54,029 bases of DNA from Candidatus Micrarchaeota archaeon (GTDB lineage Archaea; Micrarchaeota; Micrarchaeia; Anstonellales; Bilamarchaeaceae): assembly GCA_043809425.1 (NCBI GenBank), contig JAZDDV010000070.1, positions 1 to 54,029 on the forward strand. The letters are read 5' to 3'. Each line of letters opens with the position of its first letter. Position 1 is the stretch's first letter. The notes under the pieces are model-generated. The model was not told the DNA's origin. It did no database searches and saw nothing but the letters and a program-made list of their open reading frames with translations. The position numbers and the translations under genes are program-made. This document shows, piece after piece, positions 1 to 53,500 of this stretch.

Positions 1-737
1 AATTCGCCATGCGGGTCAATGATGATTATGCGAACGTTATCTTTGTACTTGGCTTCTATTGCCTTGAGCATCACGTAGAGCGCCTTGCTCTTGCCAGAAC
101 CTGACGTACCGGCGATTATTGTGTGCTGGAATGGGTCGAAATTATCCACGCCCAGCGTTATGCCGGTTTCCTCAAAAATCGGGTACTGTGATGTCATGGA
201 CATCTTTTTCGGTATGGGCTCCAGCACCTCGATGTAGATTGAAGAGCTCTTCTCCAGGTCTATCTTGAAGAACTTCTGCGGGTTAGTGATGGTGACGATG
301 CCTTTCCTTCCCTTCTCGTCTGTTGCTGAGCCAGTGACTACGTAGCCGCCAAGGAATTTGGTCACGTTGAGTACAAGCTCTTCTATGCTGCCCTTCAGCA
401 TGAAATCAAGAAGGTCATAGCGCGAACCGTCTATCATGAAAAGGCGCGGTACTGGGAAAAACGAGCCCTTCCGCGGTTCCAGATCGCTGACTTCTGAAAG
501 TCTGAACGGGAAGACCAATGCCGTCAGGTTTCGCAGATGCGGTTTCTCCTTCATGTAGAACTTAATCGTGTTGTTCTGCCGCCTTACGATCATCTGTATG
601 GCATTTAACGCCAGCATATCGGAAAAGTCGAGAAAGCCGAAAAGCGGAAGCTTGGCTTTCACTACCGTATTGAAGAAGTTCTGGATCTCTGTCTCTCCTA
701 CTTTTTCTAAGTAGAGATTTGCTTCCCGGACTTTCAT
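1..737 (-). CDS. HerA/VirB4-class (DUF87-type) P-loop ATPase, N-terminal 245 codons; 3' part lies beyond the window start
   Basis: Not in the ORF track because there is no stop in the window. My translation from ATG 735-737 reads MKVREANLYLEKVGETEIQNFF...HTIIAGTSGSGKSKALYVMLKAIEAKYKDNVRIIIIDPHGE and stays open to position 1. Walker A GTSGSGKS followed by hhhDPHGE is the HerA/DUF87 signature. Confidence 0.6.
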   Translation of the reverse strand, partial: MKVREANLYLEKVGETEIQNFFNTVVKAKLPLFGFLDFSDMLALNAIQMIVRRQNNTIKFYMKEKPHLRNLTALVFPFRLSEVSDLEPRKGSFFPVPRLFMIDGSRYDLLDFMLKGSIEELVLNVTKFLGGYVVTGSATDEKGRKGIVTITNPQKFFKIDLEKSSSIYIEVLEPIPKKMSMTSQYPIFEETGITLGVDNFDPFQHTIIAGTSGSGKSKALYVMLKAIEAKYKDNVRIIIIDPHGE

Positions 738-962
738 CTCGTTACACCGTCATTACAAACAATTCAGTTATGCCTGAAAGAGTTTAAAAATACTGTAGCC
801 GGCGCCACAGTCGGCAGTTTCCCGCTGCTGGAACTGATACAAAAGGAAACAGGAAACATATTCGAGGACGAGAAGAAGCAACTCGGCCTGTCTGATTTTG
901 TATAAAAACAACTAACAAAAGCTATTTAAACCAATTTATACACAGTAGACTAGGGAACGGGT

Positions 963-3900
963 ATGAGAAATTACATAATCCTGCTAGTTTTAGTGTGTTT
1001 TATACATGTTTTGACTTCGGCTTCTGTGCCAGCTGCCTTTGCGGTGAAGGATCCGTGGGATGACAGAGCCTGGCTTAACGGCTGGTACACTGCTGCGGTC
1101 TGTATTGGGCAGCAGACAAACGCAAGCAGCTATACGCCTTCCAACGCGCCAAAAATGCCTCTAGGCACGTGGGTTAAGGCAACAGGCGATCTGAACAATT
1201 ACATCTCGTATGGTACAGAAGGCGTCAGCTACAACGAACCGTATGTTTACGCGTACAGTTGCAACTGTGACGCGCATGGTTGCAGTATCTGCTACGAATG
1301 CCGCTACAATGAAAAGTACACGACTATCGCAGGCATGGGTTATACAACAGGCGCCTGGGACTTGGAGAAGTACCAAACCACGCTGAAGAGTTTCGCGCTT
1401 AACAATGTAAACTACGCCTTCATTGGCGATAATAAGGGAGTGAAAAGCGCATTGGAAAACGCCCGCTCGCGCTATGCAGCTGCGCAAACTGCCTATGAAA
1501 ACTGCAAAGGCTCAGACAGCTACGAGCCAACGCAACAGCTTGCCGCAACCTATGGCGACAGCCACACAAAAAGATATTTTGAATTCAGTCAGGTGCTAGC
1601 GTTTTTACATCCGAAAATGCTGAAAGTGGCAGGCGCGCCATGCAGCGTAAGCGTGCCAGCGGCTCCAAACGGACCGGCATGCAAGAGTTATCCGCTACGA
1701 TGGAAAGAAACTTCTCGCGGCGCGTTGGATGCGCTTGGAAAAAGTTTCATGACAGCAGATGCGCGCGTTCAGGAACTAAAAACTGAGTTTAACAGACTTG
1801 ATTTTGCCGGCATTTGTGCTGGAGATTACCGGGAAACGCCAAAAGCAACTTGCGATGAAGCAAAATCTGCGGTGGCAACGATAACTTCCGGAAGAAAAGA
1901 AGCAACCTACGGACAGCTCACCACGGCAACCGAAAGAAAAACCGAGATGCAGAAGAAAGCCTATTGTTTTCCGCCTGATTTTAGCGATTATTCAGCAACA
2001 ATGGAACTGCTTTGGAAGGACAATAGCGGCTTCATACCTCTTGTGCTTGCTCTGAAGCAGAGAAGCACTTCTGCATTTTCCGAAGCCAACGCAATCTACA
2101 CCAACCGCTCTAAGCAGGCAAACGAAAGATCTGCTGCACTGGCAAAAAAGAAAATTGAGTTGGATGGCAGTAAACTGAACCTAATCAAAGAAGCAGTGAT
2201 AACAAATGGTTTCGATGAAAAGAGAATAGGAACAATCGCTGAAAGAGTTGCACGTTTTAGTACAACGAAGGTGCAGGCAGATACGCAGATGAAAGATGCA
2301 GGCAGGGCCTATGCAAAAAAGCAGAAAAACTACCTGCGCGATGCGACTGTCAAGGCAAATGCTGCTTTGGCGCTCTACAGTGGAATGGAAAACGAAGCAG
2401 ACCTAATTTTATCAGACGCAAGTATGATTACGGAAACAAAGCGGCAGGCTGCAGAAGTACTGACGCAGCAGGCAGGAGCGCTTTATCAACGGGGGAAAAA
2501 TGAAAAGGTAGGCTCCTACTACAAGCAAGCCCAAGCCCAGCTGACAAAAGCTGCAGCTGCAAAAACAATTGGAGAAAAATACACCTACTACGCGGCAGCG
2601 GCAACAGCAGCACGCATGGCATTAAACAATGGAAATATTCTTGAAAATGAAACTATGCCTCTGGTAAGCCAGCTTGACGATCTGGTTAGAAGGGCTGAAA
2701 TGGATGAGATAAACGTAGCAAGTGAAAAAGAATCGCTAAATGCAATGAAACAAAGCAAAAAATACGATACGGCAGCATTGCAACGTATTTTTGAAAGCAT
2801 AATAAGGAAAGCAGACCTGAAATACGGAGACTTGAGTGACATTAAGGCAGAATTAATGGTTAACATAACTGCGTCGCAGGATTGCGGCAGTGATTTGGCT
2901 AGCGACGTACAACGGGCTGATAAAGGATTTGTAACTGCTGCAGGCATTGATTATATGAATGCACTCGGCAGCCTCAAGAAGATAAGAGAAGAATACGGCT
3001 TTGTTTCTGAGGCGCTGACTGGCTGCGAAATTAAAATGCTGCTATCAGACCTGCGCATAGACAGCAGCGTACGGACAAATGGCAGCATAAAACTGGATAA
3101 GCCAGGGCATTTGAGCGTTACTCTGCTGGTAATGAATCTTGGTACGCGGATTGGCAGGAACCTGGATATGCCTGTTGCACTTAGCTACGACGGACCGCTT
3201 GCAATTTCAGATATACGCGCCGGTAAGGACCGAATATCTGCAATTAGGCTGGCAAATAGAACGAATGTCTTTACTGTGACTGAGATACGGCCGCTTAGGA
3301 CTTTTTCAGTGCAACTGGAAAAGGATGTTATACTGGCGAAAACGCTTGCAACAAAAAGAACAGGCATTGGAAAAAGCGATGGAAGCGTTGATGTAACTGA
3401 AGAAAAAACAATTGAAACTTACGCGGCAGGCAATTTGGAAACGCCTCTTGGCACAGGCGTACTGGTAGATGGTGGAGCTGCTACTGCTGTCAACATTGGC
3501 CAGCACACGCTTGTAAGCACGTATAATCTCAAGGAAGGTTATGAGCGAACAGAGCAGGTGGTAACTACAAAACTAGGCACAAGTGTGCAGGTGGAAAAGA
3601 AAATAACGCTGCTGCCAAAAACAGACATAACGACCATGCCATTTGCATTTGCAGTAAACTATCCTGAGGTAAGCGGACTGACTGTTACTGCAGATGGCGC
3701 AACCATAGCCAATAAACAGTGCGACGTTTCCGGCTGTGCGCTGGACCTAGCTGGCTTAAAAGAAGGGAACGCGGCAAAAATACTAGTGAGTTTCACTGTG
3801 CTTGATGCGACTGCGAATCTTCCTTCAACCCCCGTTGTAGTACCGAAGATAGATGACTGTCTTGGAAGCGGGAAAAACTGCGGCGCCCTGCCTGCTGATT

Positions 3901-5084
3901 TGAATACTACTATAGAAGATCTGAACACGGCCATAAAAGAGAATGATACAGCTACTGCAATCGAACTGAAGGAAAAGGCTGAAGCAGAAATAGCAGAATG
4001 GCAGCGAGAACAGGAAAAGACCTACAACGAGCTTATGGAATTAAAAGAACAGGCACAAACAGAGTTAGAAGAACTGCAGGTAGCGCTTGCAAACAACAGC
4101 ACAAACAGCAGCCTTTACGAAGCGCTGACCGAAAGAAAAGAGGAACTTGAAGGAGCATTAGATCAGGCGGCTGCAGCAACAAGCATAACTGACGAGGTTG
4201 CAGTGCTAAAAAATATCGCTGGGGAAACCACAACCGGCGTAGTAAGCGATTTCCTGGAAGAAAGCTGGAAAAAGTATAATGACCTGAAAGTACGGCTTGC
4301 CGAAGCAGGCGTGCAAATAACGCCGCAGGAATTTATAGACGTGGAAAGCCAACTCGGAGAGCTGGAGCTTGCTAAGGACCCGCAAACTGCGCTTAAACTA
4401 ACTGAAGCGCTGGCGGCGGCAGAGAAACTGGTGGCAGATGAAGAGCAAAACGCAACCGGGCAGCTTGTAATTATGGAACAGAACTATGCGGAAATCAAAG
4501 CAAATGTAACTGCGCTGCTTTCAAAATACGCCAGCCAAAACAATGAAGCAAAAGGCAGCGAGTGGGAAGGACTGTTTTCTCTGGATACGGTCAAAATAGA
4601 CGGACTGTTACAGGAAATAGACCAGTACATTGCTGAAAAAAATATCGGTATGGTAACAATAAAACTAGAACAGCTGCAGAAGAAGCAGGGAAAAATAGAA
4701 GAAGCGCTTGCGGCTGCAAAAGACGAAGCTGAGAATATGTTGGCGACAGTACGTGATGCCTTCGAAGATAAAAAGCAGAGTCTAACGGCTGAACTAGCAG
4801 ATGCAGTTGGAAGCCAGCTAACTACCATGCTTGCAAATATCGGCGCAGGAAAATATATTCAGGCACTGAAGATCGGAAAGGAAGTGTTGACCCAATTGAC
4901 TGGCTACACAACTGAAACATTTAATCCTTTACTTGCTGTTTTGGCAGTGGTAACCGTCGGTGCTGCGGTTGGAGTTTACTATTGGAAAAAGACGGGTAAT
5001 GAAAATAGCGGGGGAGGAATAAACCTGCCGCTACTGAAGAAAAAGAAAAAAGAATTCAGAAAGCTGGCCAGGTCCGAAGAGTAG
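963..5084 (+). CDS. Giant secreted surface protein (1373 aa): signal peptide, Cys-rich head, two long alpha-helical/coiled-coil regions, central beta-rich module, single C-terminal TM anchor and Lys-rich tail
   Basis: Longest ORF in the window. N-terminal hydrophobic signal (IILLVLVCFIHVLTSASVPAAFA). 12 Cys between aa 47 and 335, including CNCDAHGCSICYEC. A/E/K/Q-rich heptad-like stretches. C-terminal LLAVLAVVTVGAAVGVYYW followed by KKTG...LLKKKKKEFRK. Confidence 0.85.
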   Translation: MRNYIILLVLVCFIHVLTSASVPAAFAVKDPWDDRAWLNGWYTAAVCIGQQTNASSYTPSNAPKMPLGTWVKATGDLNNYISYGTEGVSYNEPYVYAYSCNCDAHGCSICYECRYNEKYTTIAGMGYTTGAWDLEKYQTTLKSFALNNVNYAFIGDNKGVKSALENARSRYAAAQTAYENCKGSDSYEPTQQLAATYGDSHTKRYFEFSQVLAFLHPKMLKVAGAPCSVSVPAAPNGPACKSYPLRWKETSRGALDALGKSFMTADARVQELKTEFNRLDFAGICAGDYRETPKATCDEAKSAVATITSGRKEATYGQLTTATERKTEMQKKAYCFPPDFSDYSATMELLWKDNSGFIPLVLALKQRSTSAFSEANAIYTNRSKQANERSAALAKKKIELDGSKLNLIKEAVITNGFDEKRIGTIAERVARFSTTKVQADTQMKDAGRAYAKKQKNYLRDATVKANAALALYSGMENEADLILSDASMITETKRQAAEVLTQQAGALYQRGKNEKVGSYYKQAQAQLTKAAAAKTIGEKYTYYAAAATAARMALNNGNILENETMPLVSQLDDLVRRAEMDEINVASEKESLNAMKQSKKYDTAALQRIFESIIRKADLKYGDLSDIKAELMVNITASQDCGSDLASDVQRADKGFVTAAGIDYMNALGSLKKIREEYGFVSEALTGCEIKMLLSDLRIDSSVRTNGSIKLDKPGHLSVTLLVMNLGTRIGRNLDMPVALSYDGPLAISDIRAGKDRISAIRLANRTNVFTVTEIRPLRTFSVQLEKDVILAKTLATKRTGIGKSDGSVDVTEEKTIETYAAGNLETPLGTGVLVDGGAATAVNIGQHTLVSTYNLKEGYERTEQVVTTKLGTSVQVEKKITLLPKTDITTMPFAFAVNYPEVSGLTVTADGATIANKQCDVSGCALDLAGLKEGNAAKILVSFTVLDATANLPSTPVVVPKIDDCLGSGKNCGALPADLNTTIEDLNTAIKENDTATAIELKEKAEAEIAEWQREQEKTYNELMELKEQAQTELEELQVALANNSTNSSLYEALTERKEELEGALDQAAAATSITDEVAVLKNIAGETTTGVVSDFLEESWKKYNDLKVRLAEAGVQITPQEFIDVESQLGELELAKDPQTALKLTEALAAAEKLVADEEQNATGQLVIMEQNYAEIKANVTALLSKYASQNNEAKGSEWEGLFSLDTVKIDGLLQEIDQYIAEKNIGMVTIKLEQLQKKQGKIEEALAAAKDEAENMLATVRDAFEDKKQSLTAELADAVGSQLTTMLANIGAGKYIQALKIGKEVLTQLTGYTTETFNPLLAVLAVVTVGAAVGVYYWKKTGNENSGGGINLPLLKKKKKEFRKLARSEE

Positions 5085-5087
5085 TGG

Positions 5088-5097
5088 GTTTTTAAAT
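5088..5097 (+). promoter_or_regulatory. TATA-like element GTTTTTAAAT about 25 nt upstream of ATG 5118
   Basis: Lies in the 33-nt spacer after the fibre gene stop (5082-5084). The spacing matches the other putative leaderless promoters in this window. Confidence 0.4.
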
Positions 5098-5117
5098 GAT
5101 TTTTGAGAAGTAGTATT

Positions 5118-5372
5118 ATGGTAAGTGGACTTGAACTAGGATTGTCAAACATTTCTGCATTTTTGCTAACCATTGCCCCAGTCATAGGAATAATTTTGTT
5201 TGTTCTTGGGGGGATTATCTACGGACTTTCCTATACGCAGCCCGCGGAAAACCGCGGCAAATGGCAGAGCGCTGGGATGAATATGGCAATCGGCGGAATA
5301 ATCATTGCCGTCATGGCAGGTGCAGCAACCATGATAATGAACTGGGCTTCTGGCGCGCTCACGAGCTCTTAG
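5118..5372 (+). CDS. Small two-TM hairpin membrane protein (84 aa from ATG 5118; 89 aa if TTG 5103), VirB2/TrbC-like layout
   Basis: Two hydrophobic helices (ISAFLLTIAPVIGIILFVLGGIIYGL and MAIGGIIIAVMAGAATMIMNWA) are joined by the charged loop SYTQPAENRGKWQSAG. The gene sits immediately downstream of the giant surface protein. Confidence 0.6.
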   Translation: MVSGLELGLSNISAFLLTIAPVIGIILFVLGGIIYGLSYTQPAENRGKWQSAGMNMAIGGIIIAVMAGAATMIMNWASGALTSS

Positions 5373-41382: not shown

Positions 41383-42648
41383 CTATTGCAGTTTGAAGCG
41401 CATAAACACGAGCAGTATTATCACACCGAGCATGCCGAAGAGCAGTTGTATCGTTTGCTGCGTATCATACTGGTGGGCAAAACTTTTCCTGGTCGTTTCC
41501 CAGTTAGGTCTGCTACCTGTTTCAGTTGCATTGCCCTGGGAAAGCTGCCTGCTATAAATTTTCTGCACCGTTGTTGCATTGCCGCCGAAAACATCCATTG
41601 CCTCAAGCTTGAATTCATTTAACCCAAGCTCCTGGCCGAAATTGTAAGCGAAGCGGTAAAGATAGGCAAATGAGTGATTTTCCTGCTCCAGTGTAGTTGG
41701 CGTTGCATTAACCTGACCTAGAAACGGGCTGCTGTCATTTGCTACGGTTACTATCCGCCTTAGCCCGAATTCATTTTCAGTGATATTGAAGTCATACAAT
41801 CGAAAAGAGGCAACGGTTGTGCCATTCTTTATCAGCTTGGCTAAGTATATTTGCCGCTGGGAAAGCAGCAGTATGCTTATTTTATTATTCCTGAACCATT
41901 GTTCTCCCAATGCAGGCGTTTCCAGGAAGTACAGCTTCTGTTTACCTGCCGGGTACACGATCGCCGTGTCGCTGAAATTCAATTCCCTTTCAATTACCTC
42001 ATAGCTGCTGCCACAGCTCCCGCCTCCTCCGCCCCGGTTATCAAAAGCATAAACAAAATCCATCGTGCCGGTAAGCTGCACTTCCAGTGGTTCGCTGCCT
42101 GATGCGTTTTCCATTTGCGCTACCAGTTCAGCTGGTATGCTCGCATTATTCGCAATGGTGTGATTGTAAGAATGCCCGAATAGGCCAAGCGTTTCATAGG
42201 GCGGCTCCACCACCACGCTTTTGTTCCTGAAAGTGAAATTAATAAACCAGTGCGAGTAGGCGTGGAATTCTCTTTCGGTTTCTGTGCAGCCGTCACCATC
42301 CAGGTCGCAGAGCGAGTCTGTTGTTCTTTTCCAGTCGCATACTGCTCCGTTTACATCTTCCAGATGGTTTGCCCTTGCGCCCCGCCCTATTATGAGCAGC
42401 GCACTACCATTGGTACTGTTATCCAGCAGCAGGTTGAAGCCGGCTAGGGCCATGCTGCCGCGTACCACCATCGGTCTGCTGTACCAGTCAAGCGAAAGAT
42501 TGTCCTGGTGGGAAAAATTCTGCAGATAAAGATCATTGAGCTCTGTTGCTTTGGCATTGTTCCAGCTTAGTACGTCTGCAAAAGGTGGTTCGGTATAAAG
42601 CGCCTGGGCCGCGCACAGTAAAAACAAAAGCGCAATCAGCTTTTTCAT
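41383..42648 (-). CDS. Secreted, C-terminally anchored, sequon-rich surface protein (421 aa)
   Basis: Signal peptide MKKLIALLFLLCAAQA. 17 N-x-S/T sequons by my count. C-terminal TM helix LLFGMLGVIILLVF followed by MRFKLQ. Confidence 0.7.
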   Translation of the reverse strand: MKKLIALLFLLCAAQALYTEPPFADVLSWNNAKATELNDLYLQNFSHQDNLSLDWYSRPMVVRGSMALAGFNLLLDNSTNGSALLIIGRGARANHLEDVNGAVCDWKRTTDSLCDLDGDGCTETEREFHAYSHWFINFTFRNKSVVVEPPYETLGLFGHSYNHTIANNASIPAELVAQMENASGSEPLEVQLTGTMDFVYAFDNRGGGGGSCGSSYEVIERELNFSDTAIVYPAGKQKLYFLETPALGEQWFRNNKISILLLSQRQIYLAKLIKNGTTVASFRLYDFNITENEFGLRRIVTVANDSSPFLGQVNATPTTLEQENHSFAYLYRFAYNFGQELGLNEFKLEAMDVFGGNATTVQKIYSRQLSQGNATETGSRPNWETTRKSFAHQYDTQQTIQLLFGMLGVIILLVFMRFKLQ

Positions 42649-44562
42649 CTACAACACTTCTGGCAGTTTCTTTATGGTAACAAAAGTAAGCAGGCCGTTT
42701 GCCCGTTTAACTTCCATCTTGGCCCTATCCCTATCGCTCATTTCTGCGATTACCTTGTCTATATCTTCCTGGTTTTCAACTACGATTATGGCCTTGCGGT
42801 CGTATTTTTCCCTGTAAAGGCCAACATCGAAATCCTTGGTGGAAAACTTGCGGCCTGTTTCCTTGAAACTGATGCCGTCTTCAATCAGGTTCTCCCTTAT
42901 GGCACGCATAAGCGAGCGCTCTTTTATGTCGCCTTCTTTTGGCAGCTGGTAATATTCGCCGTACTGCTCCAGCTTGCCACTGTCCACCAGTTTGCGCAGT
43001 ATCTCTTCCACATTGCCGTCGGTGACGTCTGCGCCGTTGGTGAGATAGCGCTTTACGGCCATTTCGAATTCTGCCAGCGTTATGGGGTAGTCGCGCAGTT
43101 TCGCATCCTTTTTCATCTTTACAATGGCGTCCACCACCTTTTCCTGGTTCATCCGTAGTTCTTTTCTGATATCGCTGCTGCCTTCGGGCACGCGCAGCGT
43201 GTAAACCGGTCGCTTGCTAAGCCGTGCGATGCCGTAAACTACTAGTACTATTCCCAGGCCCGGCAAACCATAGTTAAGATAGACATCCCATATGCGGCTC
43301 TCGTTGTTGATTACTGTAATGTGGAATTGCGTTCCTTCAATTTCTATGTTGAAAATGTTTTCGCCTTTGTCAAGCAGTGCGATTATGGCCAGTTCACCAT
43401 CGTTCACATAATATTTTCTCCTGTCAGTGGAATTGCCCAGGCTTCCATAGGCCGTAAGCCCATTCATCGGCTGCCCGTCCACGGTGACGTTGAAAACGTA
43501 TTTATTGAATGTCTTGCCAGCGTAGACTACCTGCAGCTCTTTCACATGCAGCATGCCGCTTCCGATTACACCGTCGTTGTCCTTGAGCGTAAGCACGTAC
43601 TCGCCAGGTTCTTTCAGGCTTATTCTTTCCACAAATATGCTTTCATCAGTAACGCGGCGCAGCCGTTCACTATTCACTTCCTGGCCGTTTTTTGCTATCA
43701 CAAAATAAACCGTGCCGTTTGTTGTTGTCATGTCATACTGTAGCGTTGCCGTCTGCCAGGTGTAGATATCCTCTGGCTGTGGCGTGAGTACTAGCTGCGG
43801 CGATTGCAGTTCTACCGAATCAGTTATACCGCGGGCGCCACCCAACTCATATATCACTCGAATGTACTTGCTGTTGTTTAGCGCTATTTTCTTCGTTTGT
43901 TTGCCAGTTCCGCTTACTGCGAATGTTTCTGAGCTTTCGTAGGACCAGCGATTTTCCATCAGGTCCCTGCTCATATTGTTTTGCCCAGAGTCCAAATAAC
44001 TGCCGAGCGTTCCATCGTAAATCAGCAGCCTGTCTTTTTGCTCCGGTGTCAGCTCGCTATACCAGCTTTCGTTGTACATTGTCCCACCACGCAGCACCAG
44101 GTCTTTTCTTCCTATATAAACCACAATGCCGTCGCTGGCGTTATTTTTCAAATCATCCAAAACATAATTCGGCATGGCACCAGTTGCAACAACGTATATT
44201 CCCCGGCCAAGCGTTCTTCTTTCTGATATTCTCAATGTGTAACCGTATTTTTCCAGCGGTTTGAGTTTCTCAGCCAAGTCTGTTATGCGGTTCGCTTCGA
44301 TGCCTTCGTTATCATTAATGAGAGTTACCTCACGGAAGCCGCGCAGCCGATAGCTCACCAGCGTTAAATTGCCTGCTCCGCGCATGTCGTATACTAAATA
44401 ACCGTAATTGCCTGCTCTGCCCAGCTCCACTATGTTGAAAAATGGTTTTTGTATTATGGTGTCGTTTGTCTGCTGCTCAGGAGGCTGGTAGAAAACGAAG
44501 GCTACTGCGATCACAGCCAGTATGATGGCAAATGCGCCCAGCAGAACGTAGCGTAGCTTCAT
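42649..44562 (-). CDS. Two-TM receptor-like protein (637 aa): about 400-aa ectodomain between TM1 and TM2, and a 189-aa cytoplasmic tail with a winged-helix-like segment
   Basis: TM1 at aa 5-25 and TM2 at about aa 429-448 (GLPGLGIVLVVYGIARL). About 10 sequons in the ectodomain. The cytoplasmic tail shows ITLAEFEMAVKRYL...VEEILRKLVDSGKLEQYGEYYQL. Confidence 0.7.
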   Translation of the reverse strand: MKLRYVLLGAFAIILAVIAVAFVFYQPPEQQTNDTIIQKPFFNIVELGRAGNYGYLVYDMRGAGNLTLVSYRLRGFREVTLINDNEGIEANRITDLAEKLKPLEKYGYTLRISERRTLGRGIYVVATGAMPNYVLDDLKNNASDGIVVYIGRKDLVLRGGTMYNESWYSELTPEQKDRLLIYDGTLGSYLDSGQNNMSRDLMENRWSYESSETFAVSGTGKQTKKIALNNSKYIRVIYELGGARGITDSVELQSPQLVLTPQPEDIYTWQTATLQYDMTTTNGTVYFVIAKNGQEVNSERLRRVTDESIFVERISLKEPGEYVLTLKDNDGVIGSGMLHVKELQVVYAGKTFNKYVFNVTVDGQPMNGLTAYGSLGNSTDRRKYYVNDGELAIIALLDKGENIFNIEIEGTQFHITVINNESRIWDVYLNYGLPGLGIVLVVYGIARLSKRPVYTLRVPEGSSDIRKELRMNQEKVVDAIVKMKKDAKLRDYPITLAEFEMAVKRYLTNGADVTDGNVEEILRKLVDSGKLEQYGEYYQLPKEGDIKERSLMRAIRENLIEDGISFKETGRKFSTKDFDVGLYREKYDRKAIIVVENQEDIDKVIAEMSDRDRAKMEVKRANGLLTFVTIKKLPEVL

Positions 44563-45917
44563 GGGTTCATCCTTGTGTTTTTCAGGAATTCCAGGTCGTT
44601 CTTGTAGAACTCCCGTATGTCTTTCAGGTCAAGCGCAAGCATCATCGGCCTTTCCAGGCTCAGGCCCCAGGCCAGTACTGGATAAATCCCGCAAAGCGGT
44701 ATGCTCACTTCCGGCCTGAACATGCCTGCACCGCCCAGCTCCATCCATTGTTTTCTGTCTTCATAGTAAACTTCAATTTCCAGGCTAGGCTCAGTATAGG
44801 GGAAATAGCTTGGCCTGAAGCGGATTTTTTCAAAACCAAGCTTGTTGTAAATCTCTTTCAGTATGCCGAGCAAATCGCGGAAAGTTGCGTTTTCCCAGGC
44901 AACGATGCCTTCAATCTGATGGAATTCCGCCAGATGCTTGTAGTCTGTTGCCTCGTTTCTGAATACGCGGCCTACGGCGAAGTACTTGCGCGGTTTTTTG
45001 TCTTTCAATGCGGCCAAATATCTTGCGCTCAGGCAGGTGGTATGCGTTCGCAACACTGTTTTTTTTGCAATGCTTTCCTGCCAGCTATATTTCCAGCCTT
45101 TCTCATGCGCTGCCTTCACCCGTTCTACAAGCTGCTTATCGCTTGGTAGCGGCGTTTCTTTTTCTACGTAGAACGTGTCTGCCAGTTCGCGGGCCGGATG
45201 GTCCTGCGGCTGGAATAGCGCATCGAAATTCCAGAATGCCGACTGCAGCAGCTCTCCTTCCATCTCTTCAAAGCCAAGCTCAGCCATCAGGTCGCGGACC
45301 CGGTCTGCGAACATTGCAGTAGGGTGCGCCTTGCCAATTGCCGCGTCAGCCGCCTGCACATTAAGGTCCAATTCATTTTCCTTTTCCAGCCCTGAAAGCG
45401 GTTTGCCGGTATATTCCACTGCATAAATCTTCTCTGTTTTTTTGGTAATAAGATGTCTGCGGAAAAGTTCATCCTCAGTCAGCTTATCACAGCTTCCATT
45501 TGCCATTATGCTGCGGAAAGCATCTTCCAGTTTTTTGATTTCCATTTTTACTTCATCATAGCTTTTCAGCGGTTTGAGTTTTCCTGCCTCGATGTCGACA
45601 AAACCCTTTGTTTTCGCCCAGCGGATGCCTATTGACTTTTCATCTGCATTCAGCTCGTTTATGCCGACTCCCTTGTTGGCTTTTATGAAGACGGACTGCT
45701 CGGGGAAGCCTACGGACATGTAATTTTTATACTCCTCTTCTGCCTGCAGTGCGGTCTTTTCACTTTCCTGCAGTTTGACGAAATCCTTTGCCCGCAGCGA
45801 TTCTATTGCTCTTCGTACTGAGTCCTGATTAAGCGAAAGCTGTTCTGCCAGTTCTTCCAGGCTTGCGGTTTTTTTCTTCTGCAGGTACGCAGCTATTTCC
45901 CGTTCCCCCTTGTACAT
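44559..45917 (-). CDS. pheS: Phenylalanyl-tRNA synthetase alpha subunit (archaeal type with N-terminal wHTH repeats)
   Basis: HPARELADTFY, LRTHTT, GRVFRNE and FPYTEPS class II motifs. Confidence 0.93.
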   Translation of the reverse strand: MYKGEREIAAYLQKKKTASLEELAEQLSLNQDSVRRAIESLRAKDFVKLQESEKTALQAEEEYKNYMSVGFPEQSVFIKANKGVGINELNADEKSIGIRWAKTKGFVDIEAGKLKPLKSYDEVKMEIKKLEDAFRSIMANGSCDKLTEDELFRRHLITKKTEKIYAVEYTGKPLSGLEKENELDLNVQAADAAIGKAHPTAMFADRVRDLMAELGFEEMEGELLQSAFWNFDALFQPQDHPARELADTFYVEKETPLPSDKQLVERVKAAHEKGWKYSWQESIAKKTVLRTHTTCLSARYLAALKDKKPRKYFAVGRVFRNEATDYKHLAEFHQIEGIVAWENATFRDLLGILKEIYNKLGFEKIRFRPSYFPYTEPSLEIEVYYEDRKQWMELGGAGMFRPEVSIPLCGIYPVLAWGLSLERPMMLALDLKDIREFYKNDLEFLKNTRMNP

Positions 45918-46748
45918 CTAGCTTCCTCCGCTTCTTTTTTCCAGCGTGATGTAGATATAACCGCCTACAATTATTATTATCATTGCTATGACTGCCCAGC
46001 CGTATTGGCCGGTGAGCGCTCCCTGGAATCCGCTGAGAATTCCATAGAAAAATCCGGATACTTCCTTTTCCAGCGGTTCTTCCACCTCGAAAATTACGGA
46101 AAATTTCACCAGGATGGTATCGCTCCAGGTCAGTTCGCCTATTTTTGTTGGCAGCGTTCCTGTGAAGCCGTCCGGCTTCGGATTAAGATCCATGGCAACT
46201 GAATCTGCCGGCGGGACTAGCTTAAGATGAATATTCTCTGCCAGCAGGATGTCTCCCTGCGGCGTTGATAGGAATGATAATGCATCCGGGTCAAGCTTGT
46301 AGCGCGTGGTTCGCGGCTTGTAGGCGTCTATCATGAAAAGGCCGCTGCTGCCGAAGTTGCTGATATTGGCGTTTTCCCGCGATATGGGCTTGGCCGAGTA
46401 TTCTATCACCACTTCGCCATGGCAGATGCCCTGGATGGGGTTGCATTTTTTTCTCGGCTGCGGCCTTACGCGCAGGTCGCTTATGGAAACTTTGGCCGGG
46501 TTGACATGGTATTTCATATCCGGCAGCGCTGTAATGCTGGTCCAGAAAGAAATGTCATTGCTGGAGAATCCGCTGTCGTAGGCTGCCTGCGACTGGTCGC
46601 CGGTTATTATGAGCTTGATGTTTTCGGTGACGCGTGCAGAGCCATCCGGCTGGATGTCATGAATACTGACCAGCACGTCTTCCAGCATGAATTCGCTGTA
46701 TGCCACCGTGGCAAGCAGCAGCAATGCGAATAGGATCTGCAGCCTCAT
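45918..46748 (-). CDS. Secreted, C-terminally anchored protein (276 aa, hypothetical)
   Basis: Signal peptide MRLQILFALLLLATVAYS and C-terminal TM helix WAVIAMIIIIVGGYIYITL followed by EKRSGGS. Its stop abuts the pheS start. Confidence 0.65.
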   Translation of the reverse strand: MRLQILFALLLLATVAYSEFMLEDVLVSIHDIQPDGSARVTENIKLIITGDQSQAAYDSGFSSNDISFWTSITALPDMKYHVNPAKVSISDLRVRPQPRKKCNPIQGICHGEVVIEYSAKPISRENANISNFGSSGLFMIDAYKPRTTRYKLDPDALSFLSTPQGDILLAENIHLKLVPPADSVAMDLNPKPDGFTGTLPTKIGELTWSDTILVKFSVIFEVEEPLEKEVSGFFYGILSGFQGALTGQYGWAVIAMIIIIVGGYIYITLEKRSGGS

Positions 46749-52650: not shown

Positions 52651-52948
52651 ACAGGCATTTGAAGTGGCATTCGAAGGAAAGAGTTACGCGGCCATGCAGC
52701 AGAAAATGGGAAATCTTCCACTGATTGTCATCAAGGCAAAATCCGGCTATGTGGCCTGCAGCTACATAGACAAGGAGACCGCAGAAAAAGTCGGTGACAT
52801 CGCAGCATTCGTTGCCGGCGTCAAAACTGTGGAGGATTTCAAGAAGGCCAAAATCCGTTCAGTCACCACCTGGGCTGAGAACCTGGGCATTCGCGAAGGC
52901 ATGAGCGTAAAAAAAGCGCTAGAGCTTATGGACGCCCCTTGTAAATAA
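52634..52948 (+). CDS. DUF1805 (YunC-like) domain protein
   Basis: LPLIVIKAKSGYVACSYIDKETAEKVGDIAAFVAGVKTVEDF resembles the DUF1805 core. ATG 52634 overlaps the eS26 3' end by 17 nt. Confidence 0.55.
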   Translation: MARRSEQAFEVAFEGKSYAAMQQKMGNLPLIVIKAKSGYVACSYIDKETAEKVGDIAAFVAGVKTVEDFKKAKIRSVTTWAENLGIREGMSVKKALELMDAPCK

Positions 52949-53500
52949 GAATAAGAGCACCAGTCCGGCCACTCCAGTTGTCAACGTGCAGATGTTGGTA
53001 TTTTTCGGGTCCTTGGTATCATAATAATTTTGCGGACTTATTTTCATCGTTCTATTGACCTGGTCAATACACACCTGTTTTGTTACCGGCGTGCCGGTAA
53101 GCGTACTGGTGAATGCAGTCACAGTCGGATCGCCTTTCCCTATATTCTCGCAGATCTTTGCAGAGTTAACTCCAGTCGGATTAGTCGTTGCAAGTATGGT
53201 CGCAATATCATAAAAGCAGCGGTTCTTCAGCACCAGGGATTTTTGCTGCACATCCCAATTGCCAGTTCGTTGTCCGTAGTACTCGCCCATCTTCTGGATT
53301 TGATAGCAGTAGAATGTGGAATGCGCGTCATCACCTCTCATGTAGGCGGAAAATACTGCTGCCTGGTGGTAGCATTCCATTTGCCGCTCCACGTTAAGCA
53401 TGGAATCGCATTGCTCTGCATTCTGTGCATCTGCGCCGTAGCATCCGGCCAGTAGGAAAACTGCAAGCAGGATACCGAAAACCAGCAACCGTCTCATCAA
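52919..53500 (-). CDS. Cys-rich secreted protein with lipobox and C-terminal hydrophobic anchor
   Basis: MMRRLLVFGILLAVFLLAGC (lipobox-like), 7 further Cys, and C-terminal GVAGLVLLFLF followed by TRGVHKL. Confidence 0.6.
   Translation of the reverse strand: MMRRLLVFGILLAVFLLAGCYGADAQNAEQCDSMLNVERQMECYHQAAVFSAYMRGDDAHSTFYCYQIQKMGEYYGQRTGNWDVQQKSLVLKNRCFYDIATILATTNPTGVNSAKICENIGKGDPTVTAFTSTLTGTPVTKQVCIDQVNRTMKISPQNYYDTKDPKNTNICTLTTGVAGLVLLFLFTRGVHKL

Follow-up and report, generated by a model that had tools for sequence, protein, structure and literature searches.

Do three neighbouring genes at the end of an archaeal contig belong to one DNA-transfer or cell-cell contact machine? The question is raised by positions 1 to 5,372 of contig JAZDDV010000070.1 from Candidatus Micrarchaeota archaeon, whose 54,029 nucleotides (nt) were analysed as a whole and are called the window here. 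The start of an ATPase gene, a gene for a giant surface protein of 1373 amino acids (aa) and a gene for a two-helix mini-protein lie side by side (Table 1). A first-pass annotation had read them as the edge of a type IV secretion system (T4SS) or of an apparatus like the archaeal Ced/Ted DNA-import systems, with the giant protein as an adhesive fibre and the mini-protein as a pilin. All three open reading frames (ORFs) are present at the positions that it gave, and each has conserved homologues, as expected for real genes. Its guess that the DNA comes from an episymbiotic archaeon with a small genome was judged reasonable as well, as the names of the homologues point to Micrarchaeota (DPANN) and the named relatives belong to Bilamarchaeaceae. 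The single machine did not hold up: the ATPase and the fibre genes are not syntenic in relatives. The comparison argues that two independent units, which are neighbours in this genome only, were wrongly merged into one finding. Unit A (positions 963-5372) is the cassette of giant protein and mini-protein, and unit B (positions 1-737) is the start of an orphan ATPase gene. With modest confidence, we favour the explanation that the giant protein and its hairpin partner form an envelope or host-contact cassette and that the ATPase is unrelated to it.

Table 1. Features at the edge of the window, and the element of a related genome used for comparison. Positions are those of the window unless a locus is named.
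Feature	Position	Strand	Basis or remark
ATPase, N-terminal 245 codons, cut by the window edge	1..737	-	translation, Pfam, 39 orthologous loci
ATPase-giant divergent intergenic region	738..962	.	225 nt; junction specific to this genome
Giant surface protein, 1373 aa	963..5084	+	ORF, full-length alignment, AlphaFold2, Foldseek, composition
Giant protein: signal peptide (residues 1-28), Cys-rich head (29-240), helical region (241-696)			
Giant protein: two beta-sandwich (Ig-like) domains, aa 697-946	3051..3800	+	AlphaFold2, Foldseek
Giant protein: Cys-containing linker (residues 947-977)			
Giant protein: helical stalk, aa 978-1317, and transmembrane anchor, aa 1318-1342	3894..4988	+	composition, hydropathy, PDB profile
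Giant protein: basic cytoplasmic tail (residues 1343-1373)			
TATA-box-like element TTTTTAAAT	5089..5097	+	centred ~25 nt upstream of the mini-protein ATG
Mini-protein, 84-aa two-helix membrane hairpin	5118..5372	+	ORF, 17-homologue alignment, AlphaFold2
T4SS-like integrated element in a Micrarchaeota metagenome-assembled genome	L042 973-9464	-	Pfam matches

Synteny was assessed by tblastn of the giant protein, the mini-protein and their downstream neighbours against all loci, and covered flanks of up to 10 kb. With each GTDB species represented by one genome, 39 Micrarchaeota loci with an orthologue of the ATPase were found, and in 34 of these the sequence upstream of the ATPase start extends over 4 kb or more. 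Neither the giant nor the mini-protein gene was found near the ATPase within these flanks (0/39 loci), and the ATPase was found at none of the giant/mini-protein loci of relatives. The divergent spacing between ATPase and giant gene was confirmed from the sequence; this junction is missing from 39/39 ATPase loci and from 5/5 giant loci with upstream sequence.

The giant protein and the mini-protein, in turn, are conserved as a pair. All nine loci recovered for mini-protein homologues (L009-L013, L060-L063) carry a giant gene directly upstream and co-directional (1374-1387 aa, or a copy truncated by the contig end), with a gap of 30-41 nt. The mini-protein is far more constrained than its neighbour, as its 17 close homologues share 61-86% identity and the full-length relatives of the giant protein 33-42%. 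Upstream of the pair lie PolD DP2 or a HepT toxin-antitoxin pair. The gene right after the mini-protein encodes Mut7-C, aspartate decarboxylase or TRAM, and the downstream block is either Mut7-C, ribosomal protein S10 and KsgA, as also in the window, or TRAM/PheRS. This setting bears on the idea that the three genes mark the margin of a mobile element, conjugative or viral, in which FtsK/HerA ATPases and VirB2-like pilins are typical and of which a relative does hold an example (L042, described below). However, the pair stands among core genes (PolD, ribosomal protein S10, KsgA, PheRS) in every lineage, the GC content is level throughout the region without a step, the ATPase occurs in 39 species, and neither ATPase nor mini-protein has a single relative among the IMG/VR viral contigs. 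By transmembrane (TM) and Walker-A criteria no transfer gene was recognised among the ORFs of the window; integrase and relaxase genes were not searched for. Genomic context and viral-contig scans therefore effectively refute the mobile element, which we regard as highly improbable. Instead, the pair would be an envelope cassette that is passed on vertically in Micrarchaeota of the Bilamarchaeaceae type, a claim made with the restrained confidence that applies to the favoured explanation as a whole.

The architecture of the giant protein fits such a place in the envelope. It had been described as a secreted protein held by one C-terminal TM helix, and a hydrophobic N-terminus (aa 1-28) and a helix at aa 1318-1342 bear this out. 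The mature form has ~146 kDa and an isoelectric point (pI) of 5.3. An AlphaFold2 model of aa 1-1000, made from 4 sequences, has a mean predicted local distance difference test score (pLDDT) of 60; the helices of residues 238-696 reach ~90 in places and the strands of residues 697-946 mostly 60-85. For the beta-sandwich domains Foldseek gave matches to the leg domains of integrin alpha-V (E = 3.5e-5), to ribophorin and to the Als adhesins of Candida, all of them generic tandem Ig-like surface modules. The stalk is acidic (pI 4.3), contains 2 Pro in 340 residues and holds 7 of the 13 N-glycosylation sequons of the protein. Against the PDB, the profile of the giant protein gave weak coiled-coil matches only, at residues 1107-1313 (keratin coil 2B, ATP synthase b stalk). 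Paired Cys residues, the TM helix and the basic tail are kept in its relatives. Pfam returned nothing but a chance match to RapH_N (E = 0.2), PADLOC and PHROGs had no match for either the giant protein or the mini-protein, and an exact-sequence look-up of the giant protein gave no record. A word-indexed homologue search found 3 relatives only, since low-complexity words dominate, and a metagenome scan added 2 new loci. The database annotates the giant protein (P0024) with 1357 aa, from a start 16 codons downstream of ATG 963. This start would cut into the predicted signal peptide, and the homologue alignment favours the longer form (window 963-1010).

In its layout the giant protein comes close to SlaB, which as a stalk anchors the two-component surface layer (S-layer) of Sulfolobales to the membrane (PMC10903991). 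Both have a signal peptide, beta-sandwich domains, a long sequon-bearing C-terminal helix or coiled coil and a terminal TM helix (PMC10903991). With 1373 aa against 475 aa the giant protein is about three times larger; it has two beta-sandwich domains where SlaB has three, and a stalk of ~340 aa where that of SlaB has 132 aa. Unlike SlaB, it carries an additional ~670 aa of N-terminal head and helical region, and no SlaA-like partner was identified. For Micrarchaeum, an S-layer protein with PF05123 and no clear anchor, SLP_Mh, has been described, and its authors speculated on a SlaB-like second protein (10.1101/2021.04.28.441871). We also considered the giant protein itself as an SLP_Mh-type S-layer protein and dropped this idea because PF05123 (S_layer_N) is missing.

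The mini-protein gene was confirmed as an ORF of 84-89 aa that begins either at TTG 5103 (89 aa) or at ATG 5118 (84 aa), the latter 33 nt past the stop codon of the giant gene. The ATG is favoured because the homologues start there and because a conserved TATA-like box precedes it. The positions of this element, TTTTTAAAT, are invariant in the spacer between giant and mini-protein gene at four loci, which represent three lineages because L010 and L011 do not differ in this stretch. As its distance to the ATG matches the usual archaeal spacing from TATA box to start, the mini-protein gene is probably transcribed from a promoter of its own, with a short leader or none. The first-pass annotation had noted two hydrophobic helices with a charged loop between them, and AlphaFold2 predicts helices at aa 4-40 and 43-83 with a mean pLDDT of 89. 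The loop region carries R46 and K48. Across the alignment of the 17 homologues 23 columns are invariant, including the loop motif LSYTQPxxxRGKWQ. Like CedA1, the protein has no signal peptide.

Is this hairpin a pilin of the VirB2/TrbC type, as the first-pass annotation proposed? In size and shape it resembles one: a core of ~70-80 aa, two hydrophobic helices and a short basic loop in the AlphaFold2 model, with both termini predicted outside, as in VirB2/TrbC and T4SS_pilin proteins. Its own score on the Pfam family T4SS_pilin (PF18895) is 19.1 bits (E = 1.4e-3) and stays below the gathering score of 26.6; the next matches are DUF6112 and a pilin-like family of a Mycoplasma integrative and conjugative element. 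TrbC (PF04956) gave no match, and no Pfam domain is precomputed for any of the 17 close homologues. A PDB search with the profile of the mini-protein returned no pilin (VirB2, TraA, CedA1, TedC). Foldseek gave generic helical hairpins, all with E > 0.1, and no pilin among the top 50 matches listed.

A remote similarity becomes visible at the level of the family. The 17-sequence profile retrieved 89 proteins at E <= 1e-3 from among 1.84 billion, 30 of them at E <= 1e-10, and many of the matches are proteins of 110-140 aa in which the hairpin comes after a signal peptide, as in TrbC. In a set of 80 small relatives, which was selected by the mini-protein profile itself and thus serves as a bridge and not as an independent sample, 29 match T4SS_pilin (best E = 1.8e-18) and 24 match TrbC (best E = 2.8e-11) at E <= 0.01, most of these individual matches being below threshold; every other Pfam family has at most 2 matches. 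For comparison, a set of true VirB2 proteins was assembled from seven annotated VirB2/TrbC genes that lie between VirB1 and VirB3 on alphaproteobacterial plasmids. Aligned to this set by hhalign, the 80-member family reached a probability of 44.5% (P = 2.3e-4) over 66 columns, correctly in register from one end of the hairpin to the other (query 3-80, VirB2 54-120). The narrow 17-member profile reached 11.8% (P = 2.5e-3), and the negative control, the two-TM ATP synthase c subunit, gave P = 0.39-0.47. True VirB2 against the context-verified pilins of L042 also reached 44.5%, so proteins this short cannot score much higher. The likeness to VirB2/TrbC stands as a remote similarity of family profiles, and does not extend to the Pfam score of the mini-protein itself. 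From the profile comparisons, we regard remote membership in the VirB2/TrbC superfamily as likely, though not as established.

These same numbers have to be weighed against convergence. Any short, Gly-rich, two-TM hairpin might look like a pilin, and the mini-protein could then be an unrelated stabiliser or insertion helper, with the giant protein as an S-layer stalk or anchor. Every direct score of the mini-protein lies below its curated threshold, hhalign does not exceed 44%, and neither sequence nor fold searches of the PDB pointed to VirB2, TraA, CedA1 or TedC. Hydrophobic proteins also tend to inflate the scores of hidden Markov models, so that the E-values given here run optimistic, and the loop of the mini-protein is ~12 residues longer than that of VirB2 and holds the invariant motif YTQPxxxRGKWQ. 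Moreover, a distant homologue of the giant protein has a different partner: ~45-64 nt after it comes the gene of a Gly-rich polytopic membrane protein (184-190 aa) that is not homologous to the mini-protein (L054 3427-3999; L055 11774-12328). On the other hand, the concentration of matches on two pilin families, the full-length hhalign register, the behaviour of the negative control, the equal score of true VirB2 against the L042 pilins and the TrbC-like layout of many relatives all speak against mere convergence, which we consider unlikely. The non-homologous successor in L054/L055 can also be read differently, since a membrane protein after the giant gene fits the role of a membrane partner for the mini-protein. 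The distant homologue itself shares 26% identity with the giant protein and is missing the Cys-rich head.

The ATPase was the second pillar of the proposed T4SS. As described, the ORF is open on the minus strand from ATG 737 to the window edge over 245 codons, with IIAGTSGSGKS inside and IIIDPHGE at its end. The fragment passes Pfam DUF87 (E = 2.3e-8, 34.8 bits; gathering score 23.2). DUF87, FtsK_SpoIIIE and TrwB_AAD_bind cover the P-loop alone in this fragment, and the top NCBIfam match is CedD with 23 bits against a cut-off of 600. A word-indexed database contained four relatives, P0002-P0005, none of them a complete gene product because of a contig end, a scaffold gap or a frameshift. The 39 orthologous loci, from several Micrarchaeota families, share 47-61% identity over the N-terminal domain. 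Intact orthologues have 606-919 aa, and the fragment would be the N-terminal third of a protein of ~700-900 aa. The orthologues begin with a domain of ~200 aa that is specific to the family, followed by the P-loop core and a long tail rich in K and E; the Walker A and B motifs are represented by GTSGSGKS in the window and by ILVVDEF, along with RKFN, in the orthologues. Only two Pfam models are passed by the full-length orthologues, DUF87 with 41 bits and TrwB_AAD_bind with 34 bits (20.5 needed; residues 204-494). The curated models fail: VirB4 (TIGR00929) with 17.5 bits against a cut-off of 643, and neither AAA_10 nor P-loop_TraG matching; CedD (NF053655) with 41.7 bits against 600, on the P-loop only; and the HerA equivalog (NF040819) with 18.5 bits against 970. 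A PDB search with the single sequence gave no match, and a search with the profile gave P-loop matches to HerA and FtsK and nothing else. PADLOC and PHROGs returned weak generic matches (HerA/mad8, and families of unknown function) that suggest neither a defence nor a phage origin. Because only DUF87 and TrwB_AAD_bind pass and the curated equivalogs fail, the ATPase is assigned to an orphan clade of the FtsK/HerA superfamily, without demonstrable VirB4 identity. Of the proposed HerA/VirB4 class, the superfamily thus stands and the specific assignment does not. With HerA, FtsK and VirD4 (TrwB) it shares Walker A and B and the arginine-containing RKFN motif; it differs from them in its own N-terminal domain, in the K/E-rich tail and in having no NurA/Mre11/Rad50 or T4SS neighbours. 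In L014 and L025 an ORF of 80-82 aa overlaps the start of the ATPase gene; examined as a hairpin candidate, it proved not to be one.

What would lie beyond position 1 can be judged from the orthologous loci. The first-pass annotation placed the rest of a T4SS there, with NurA/Mre11/Rad50 as the alternative. At the corresponding side of the orthologues we observed arrays of Cys-rich paralogues and no VirB6/CedA, coupling protein or relaxase, and among the recurrent neighbour clusters of the 39 loci none is NurA/Mre11/Rad50-like. Tandem arrays of the Cys-rich family (cluster 0) flank the ATPase in 28/39 loci, usually directly downstream and convergent. Among these loci the family counts 118 genes, whose products have ~260 aa, or ~520 aa as fusions, with 4% Cys, almost never a TM helix, and motifs such as CHNCENLNNCMFCFN. 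It has no match in Pfam, NCBIfam, PADLOC or PHROGs and no copy within the window. Other recurrent neighbours are HTH_10 and TrmB-like regulators and a PALP enzyme. The link between this type of ATPase and Cys-rich arrays appears to be undescribed so far. By synteny, the remaining ~450-650 codons of the ATPase followed by a convergent Cys-rich array would be expected beyond position 1, and VirB6/CedA, a relaxase or NurA/Mre11/Rad50 would not. Examples of the arrays are L014 6442-9778 and 13255-18080, and L025 50-9784 and 12129-20680, with 26 further ATPase loci; they reach up to 14 copies, with two subtypes that alternate or are fused, and the proteins are apparently cytosolic. The contigs of many assemblies stop in or beside the ATPase or giant gene (position 1 of the window; the starts of L012, L013, L062 and L063). 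This suggests assembly breaks from repeats or strain variation, and near the ATPase contigs may break because of the repeats in the Cys-rich arrays.

One Micrarchaeota locus shows what a T4SS-like neighbourhood looks like in this phylum. The element in L042 encodes a VirB4-like ATPase of 1063 aa (P-loop_TraG with 89.6 bits, AAA_10, and a weak VirB3-like PrgI match at the N-terminus) and, in the same operon, a polytopic protein of 314 aa and two pilins of 79 and 101 aa, one of which passes the T4SS_pilin (PF18895) threshold with 39.4 bits. The operon adjoins an N6/N4 DNA methylase gene, and a tyrosine integrase gene lies 2.7 kb off. The element is situated just upstream of an ATPase of the window type, which we judge to be a coincidence. 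It serves as a positive control for a T4SS-like locus, and the window has none of these partners. The mini-protein is only distantly similar to the L042 pilins, as the narrow profile did not detect them and the broad family profile detected one (E = 0.0017). The neighbouring ATPase is no evidence of a T4SS here, and a tempting but wrong annotation is removed.

Could the parts nevertheless belong to a dispersed, T4SS-derived apparatus of the Ced/Ted kind? The mini-protein would then be a pilin that polymerises with lipid, the giant protein an adhesin and the ATPase genetically unlinked; the ATPase at 1-737 might be CedD/VirD4-like and power assembly or the transfer of DNA or cargo to or from the host. 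The ced genes are dispersed in Sulfolobus (PMC11823120), and CedA1 and CedA2 have no signal peptides (PMC11823120, PMC9905601). Because of this, the lack of synteny weakens an unlinked Ced-like system without disposing of it. Like the Ced/Ted genes, those of the window lie on an archaeal chromosome and encode a small pilin-like protein of two TM helices and an FtsK/HerA-superfamily ATPase whose top NCBIfam match is CedD, with TrwB_AAD_bind passing in the full-length orthologues, and the pilin similarity is remote yet consistent. Archaeal relatives of the mini-protein also adjoin polytopic membrane proteins (L058, L056), as CedA1 adjoins CedA. In addition, VirB2-like pilin arrays are widespread in episymbiotic Patescibacteria, with an essential array reported from one of these bacteria (PMC12102498). 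Small VirB2-like hairpin proteins and an episymbiotic lifestyle would be common to them and to the archaeon studied here. However, the partners are lacking. VirB4, VirB3 and VirB6/CedA/TedA genes were not found beside the mini-protein in the window or at the nine loci of relatives (available flanks, up to 10 kb); unlike VirB2/TrbC, it is always encoded next to the giant surface protein with its membrane anchor, among core genes. The CedD score of the ATPase is far below its cut-off and confined to the P-loop, the ATPase has a conserved neighbourhood of its own, and the narrow profile of the mini-protein reaches neither the L042 pilins nor more than the low hhalign value against VirB2; the Foldseek result points the same way. 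Overall, a dispersed Ced/Ted-like apparatus seems unlikely to us.

We return to the envelope or host-contact cassette. According to this explanation, the giant protein would be exported and stay anchored by its C-terminal TM helix, and its C-terminal half would lift the helical region and the Cys-rich head tens of nanometres off the membrane. The mini-protein, transcribed from its own promoter, would be inserted with both ends outside and the invariant basic loop (RGKW) on the cytoplasmic face. There it may pack round the TM helix of the giant protein as a base or assembly platform, so that both would form a stalked surface spike for envelope architecture or host contact. The mini-protein would be descended from, or closely convergent on, VirB2/TrbC-type pilins, with no adjacent VirB4/VirB6 machine. 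The ATPase would stand outside unit A, in its own neighbourhood of Cys-rich arrays and helix-turn-helix regulators. The wider hairpin family is in line with this: in other uncultured prokaryotes, at least some of them archaeal, its members form polyproteins with several hairpins or stand at the C-terminal end of large ectodomain proteins. In L056, three proteins of 472-677 aa begin with a signal peptide and end in a hairpin, with an ectodomain in between. Because of these fusions the hairpin may be a membrane module of large surface proteins, and this supports the pair in the window as a split version of the same arrangement.

Several points weigh against the cassette. Physical contact between giant protein and mini-protein is inferred, and the strongly conserved pilin-like features of the mini-protein would also fit a true polymerising pilin. 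With ced genes dispersed in Sulfolobus, absent synteny is no proof that the ATPase is functionally unrelated, and the neighbour analysis of the ATPase was built on raw ORFs and BLAST clustering rather than on curated gene calls. The head of the giant protein (aa 1-240) has a pLDDT below 50 in the four-sequence model and is effectively unmodelled. Its SlaB-like layout is an architectural resemblance only, and it has no PF05123, unlike the known Micrarchaeum S-layer protein.

It is tempting to speculate further that the mini-protein is a domesticated VirB2-type pilin. Together with archaeal lipids it might build a short pilus-like shaft or a membrane collar that carries the giant protein, and the whole could be a chromosomal, T4SS-derived host-contact organelle of DPANN archaea with unlinked energising genes. 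We consider this a long shot. If true, it would parallel the VirB2-like arrays of Patescibacteria and represent a previously unrecognised surface-display system. Attachment to the host and exchange with it are largely mysterious in DPANN archaea, and the strictly conserved pair offers a testable candidate for contact or envelope functions in a single lineage of Micrarchaeota. The literature searched contains no description of VirB2-like hairpins as a wider family used outside classical T4SS loci, with fusions to ectodomains in some members and up to seven repeats in one protein.

Further members of this hairpin family were found in other settings. In L058/L059 (10001-11382), a relative of 136 aa with signal peptide and hairpin has a stop/start overlap with the gene of a polytopic membrane protein of 324 aa; the setting is one of archaeal core genes (exosome, proteasome, GGGP synthase), and the arrangement resembles CedA1-CedA. 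In L056 (9283-20849; identical to L057), a run of six genes that encode hairpins precedes three genes for polytopic membrane proteins, and one of the hairpin proteins has four hairpins (P0042). No Walker-A motif was found in eight ORFs checked at this operon (10 kb downstream), and the polytopic proteins beside hairpin genes have no match in Pfam or NCBIfam. P0028, from another source, carries seven hairpins after an ectodomain of 400 aa.

Additional predicted surface proteins, with no Pfam match on record, are encoded elsewhere in the window (41383-46748 on the minus strand, and 52919-53500). They comprise proteins of 421 aa (signal peptide and C-terminal TM helix), 637 aa (N-terminally anchored) and 276 aa (signal peptide and C-terminal TM helix), and the gene for PheRS alpha is interleaved with this block. 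The block lies within ~1 kb of the giant/mini-protein cassette in L012, L013 and L061, and 36 kb away from it in the window.

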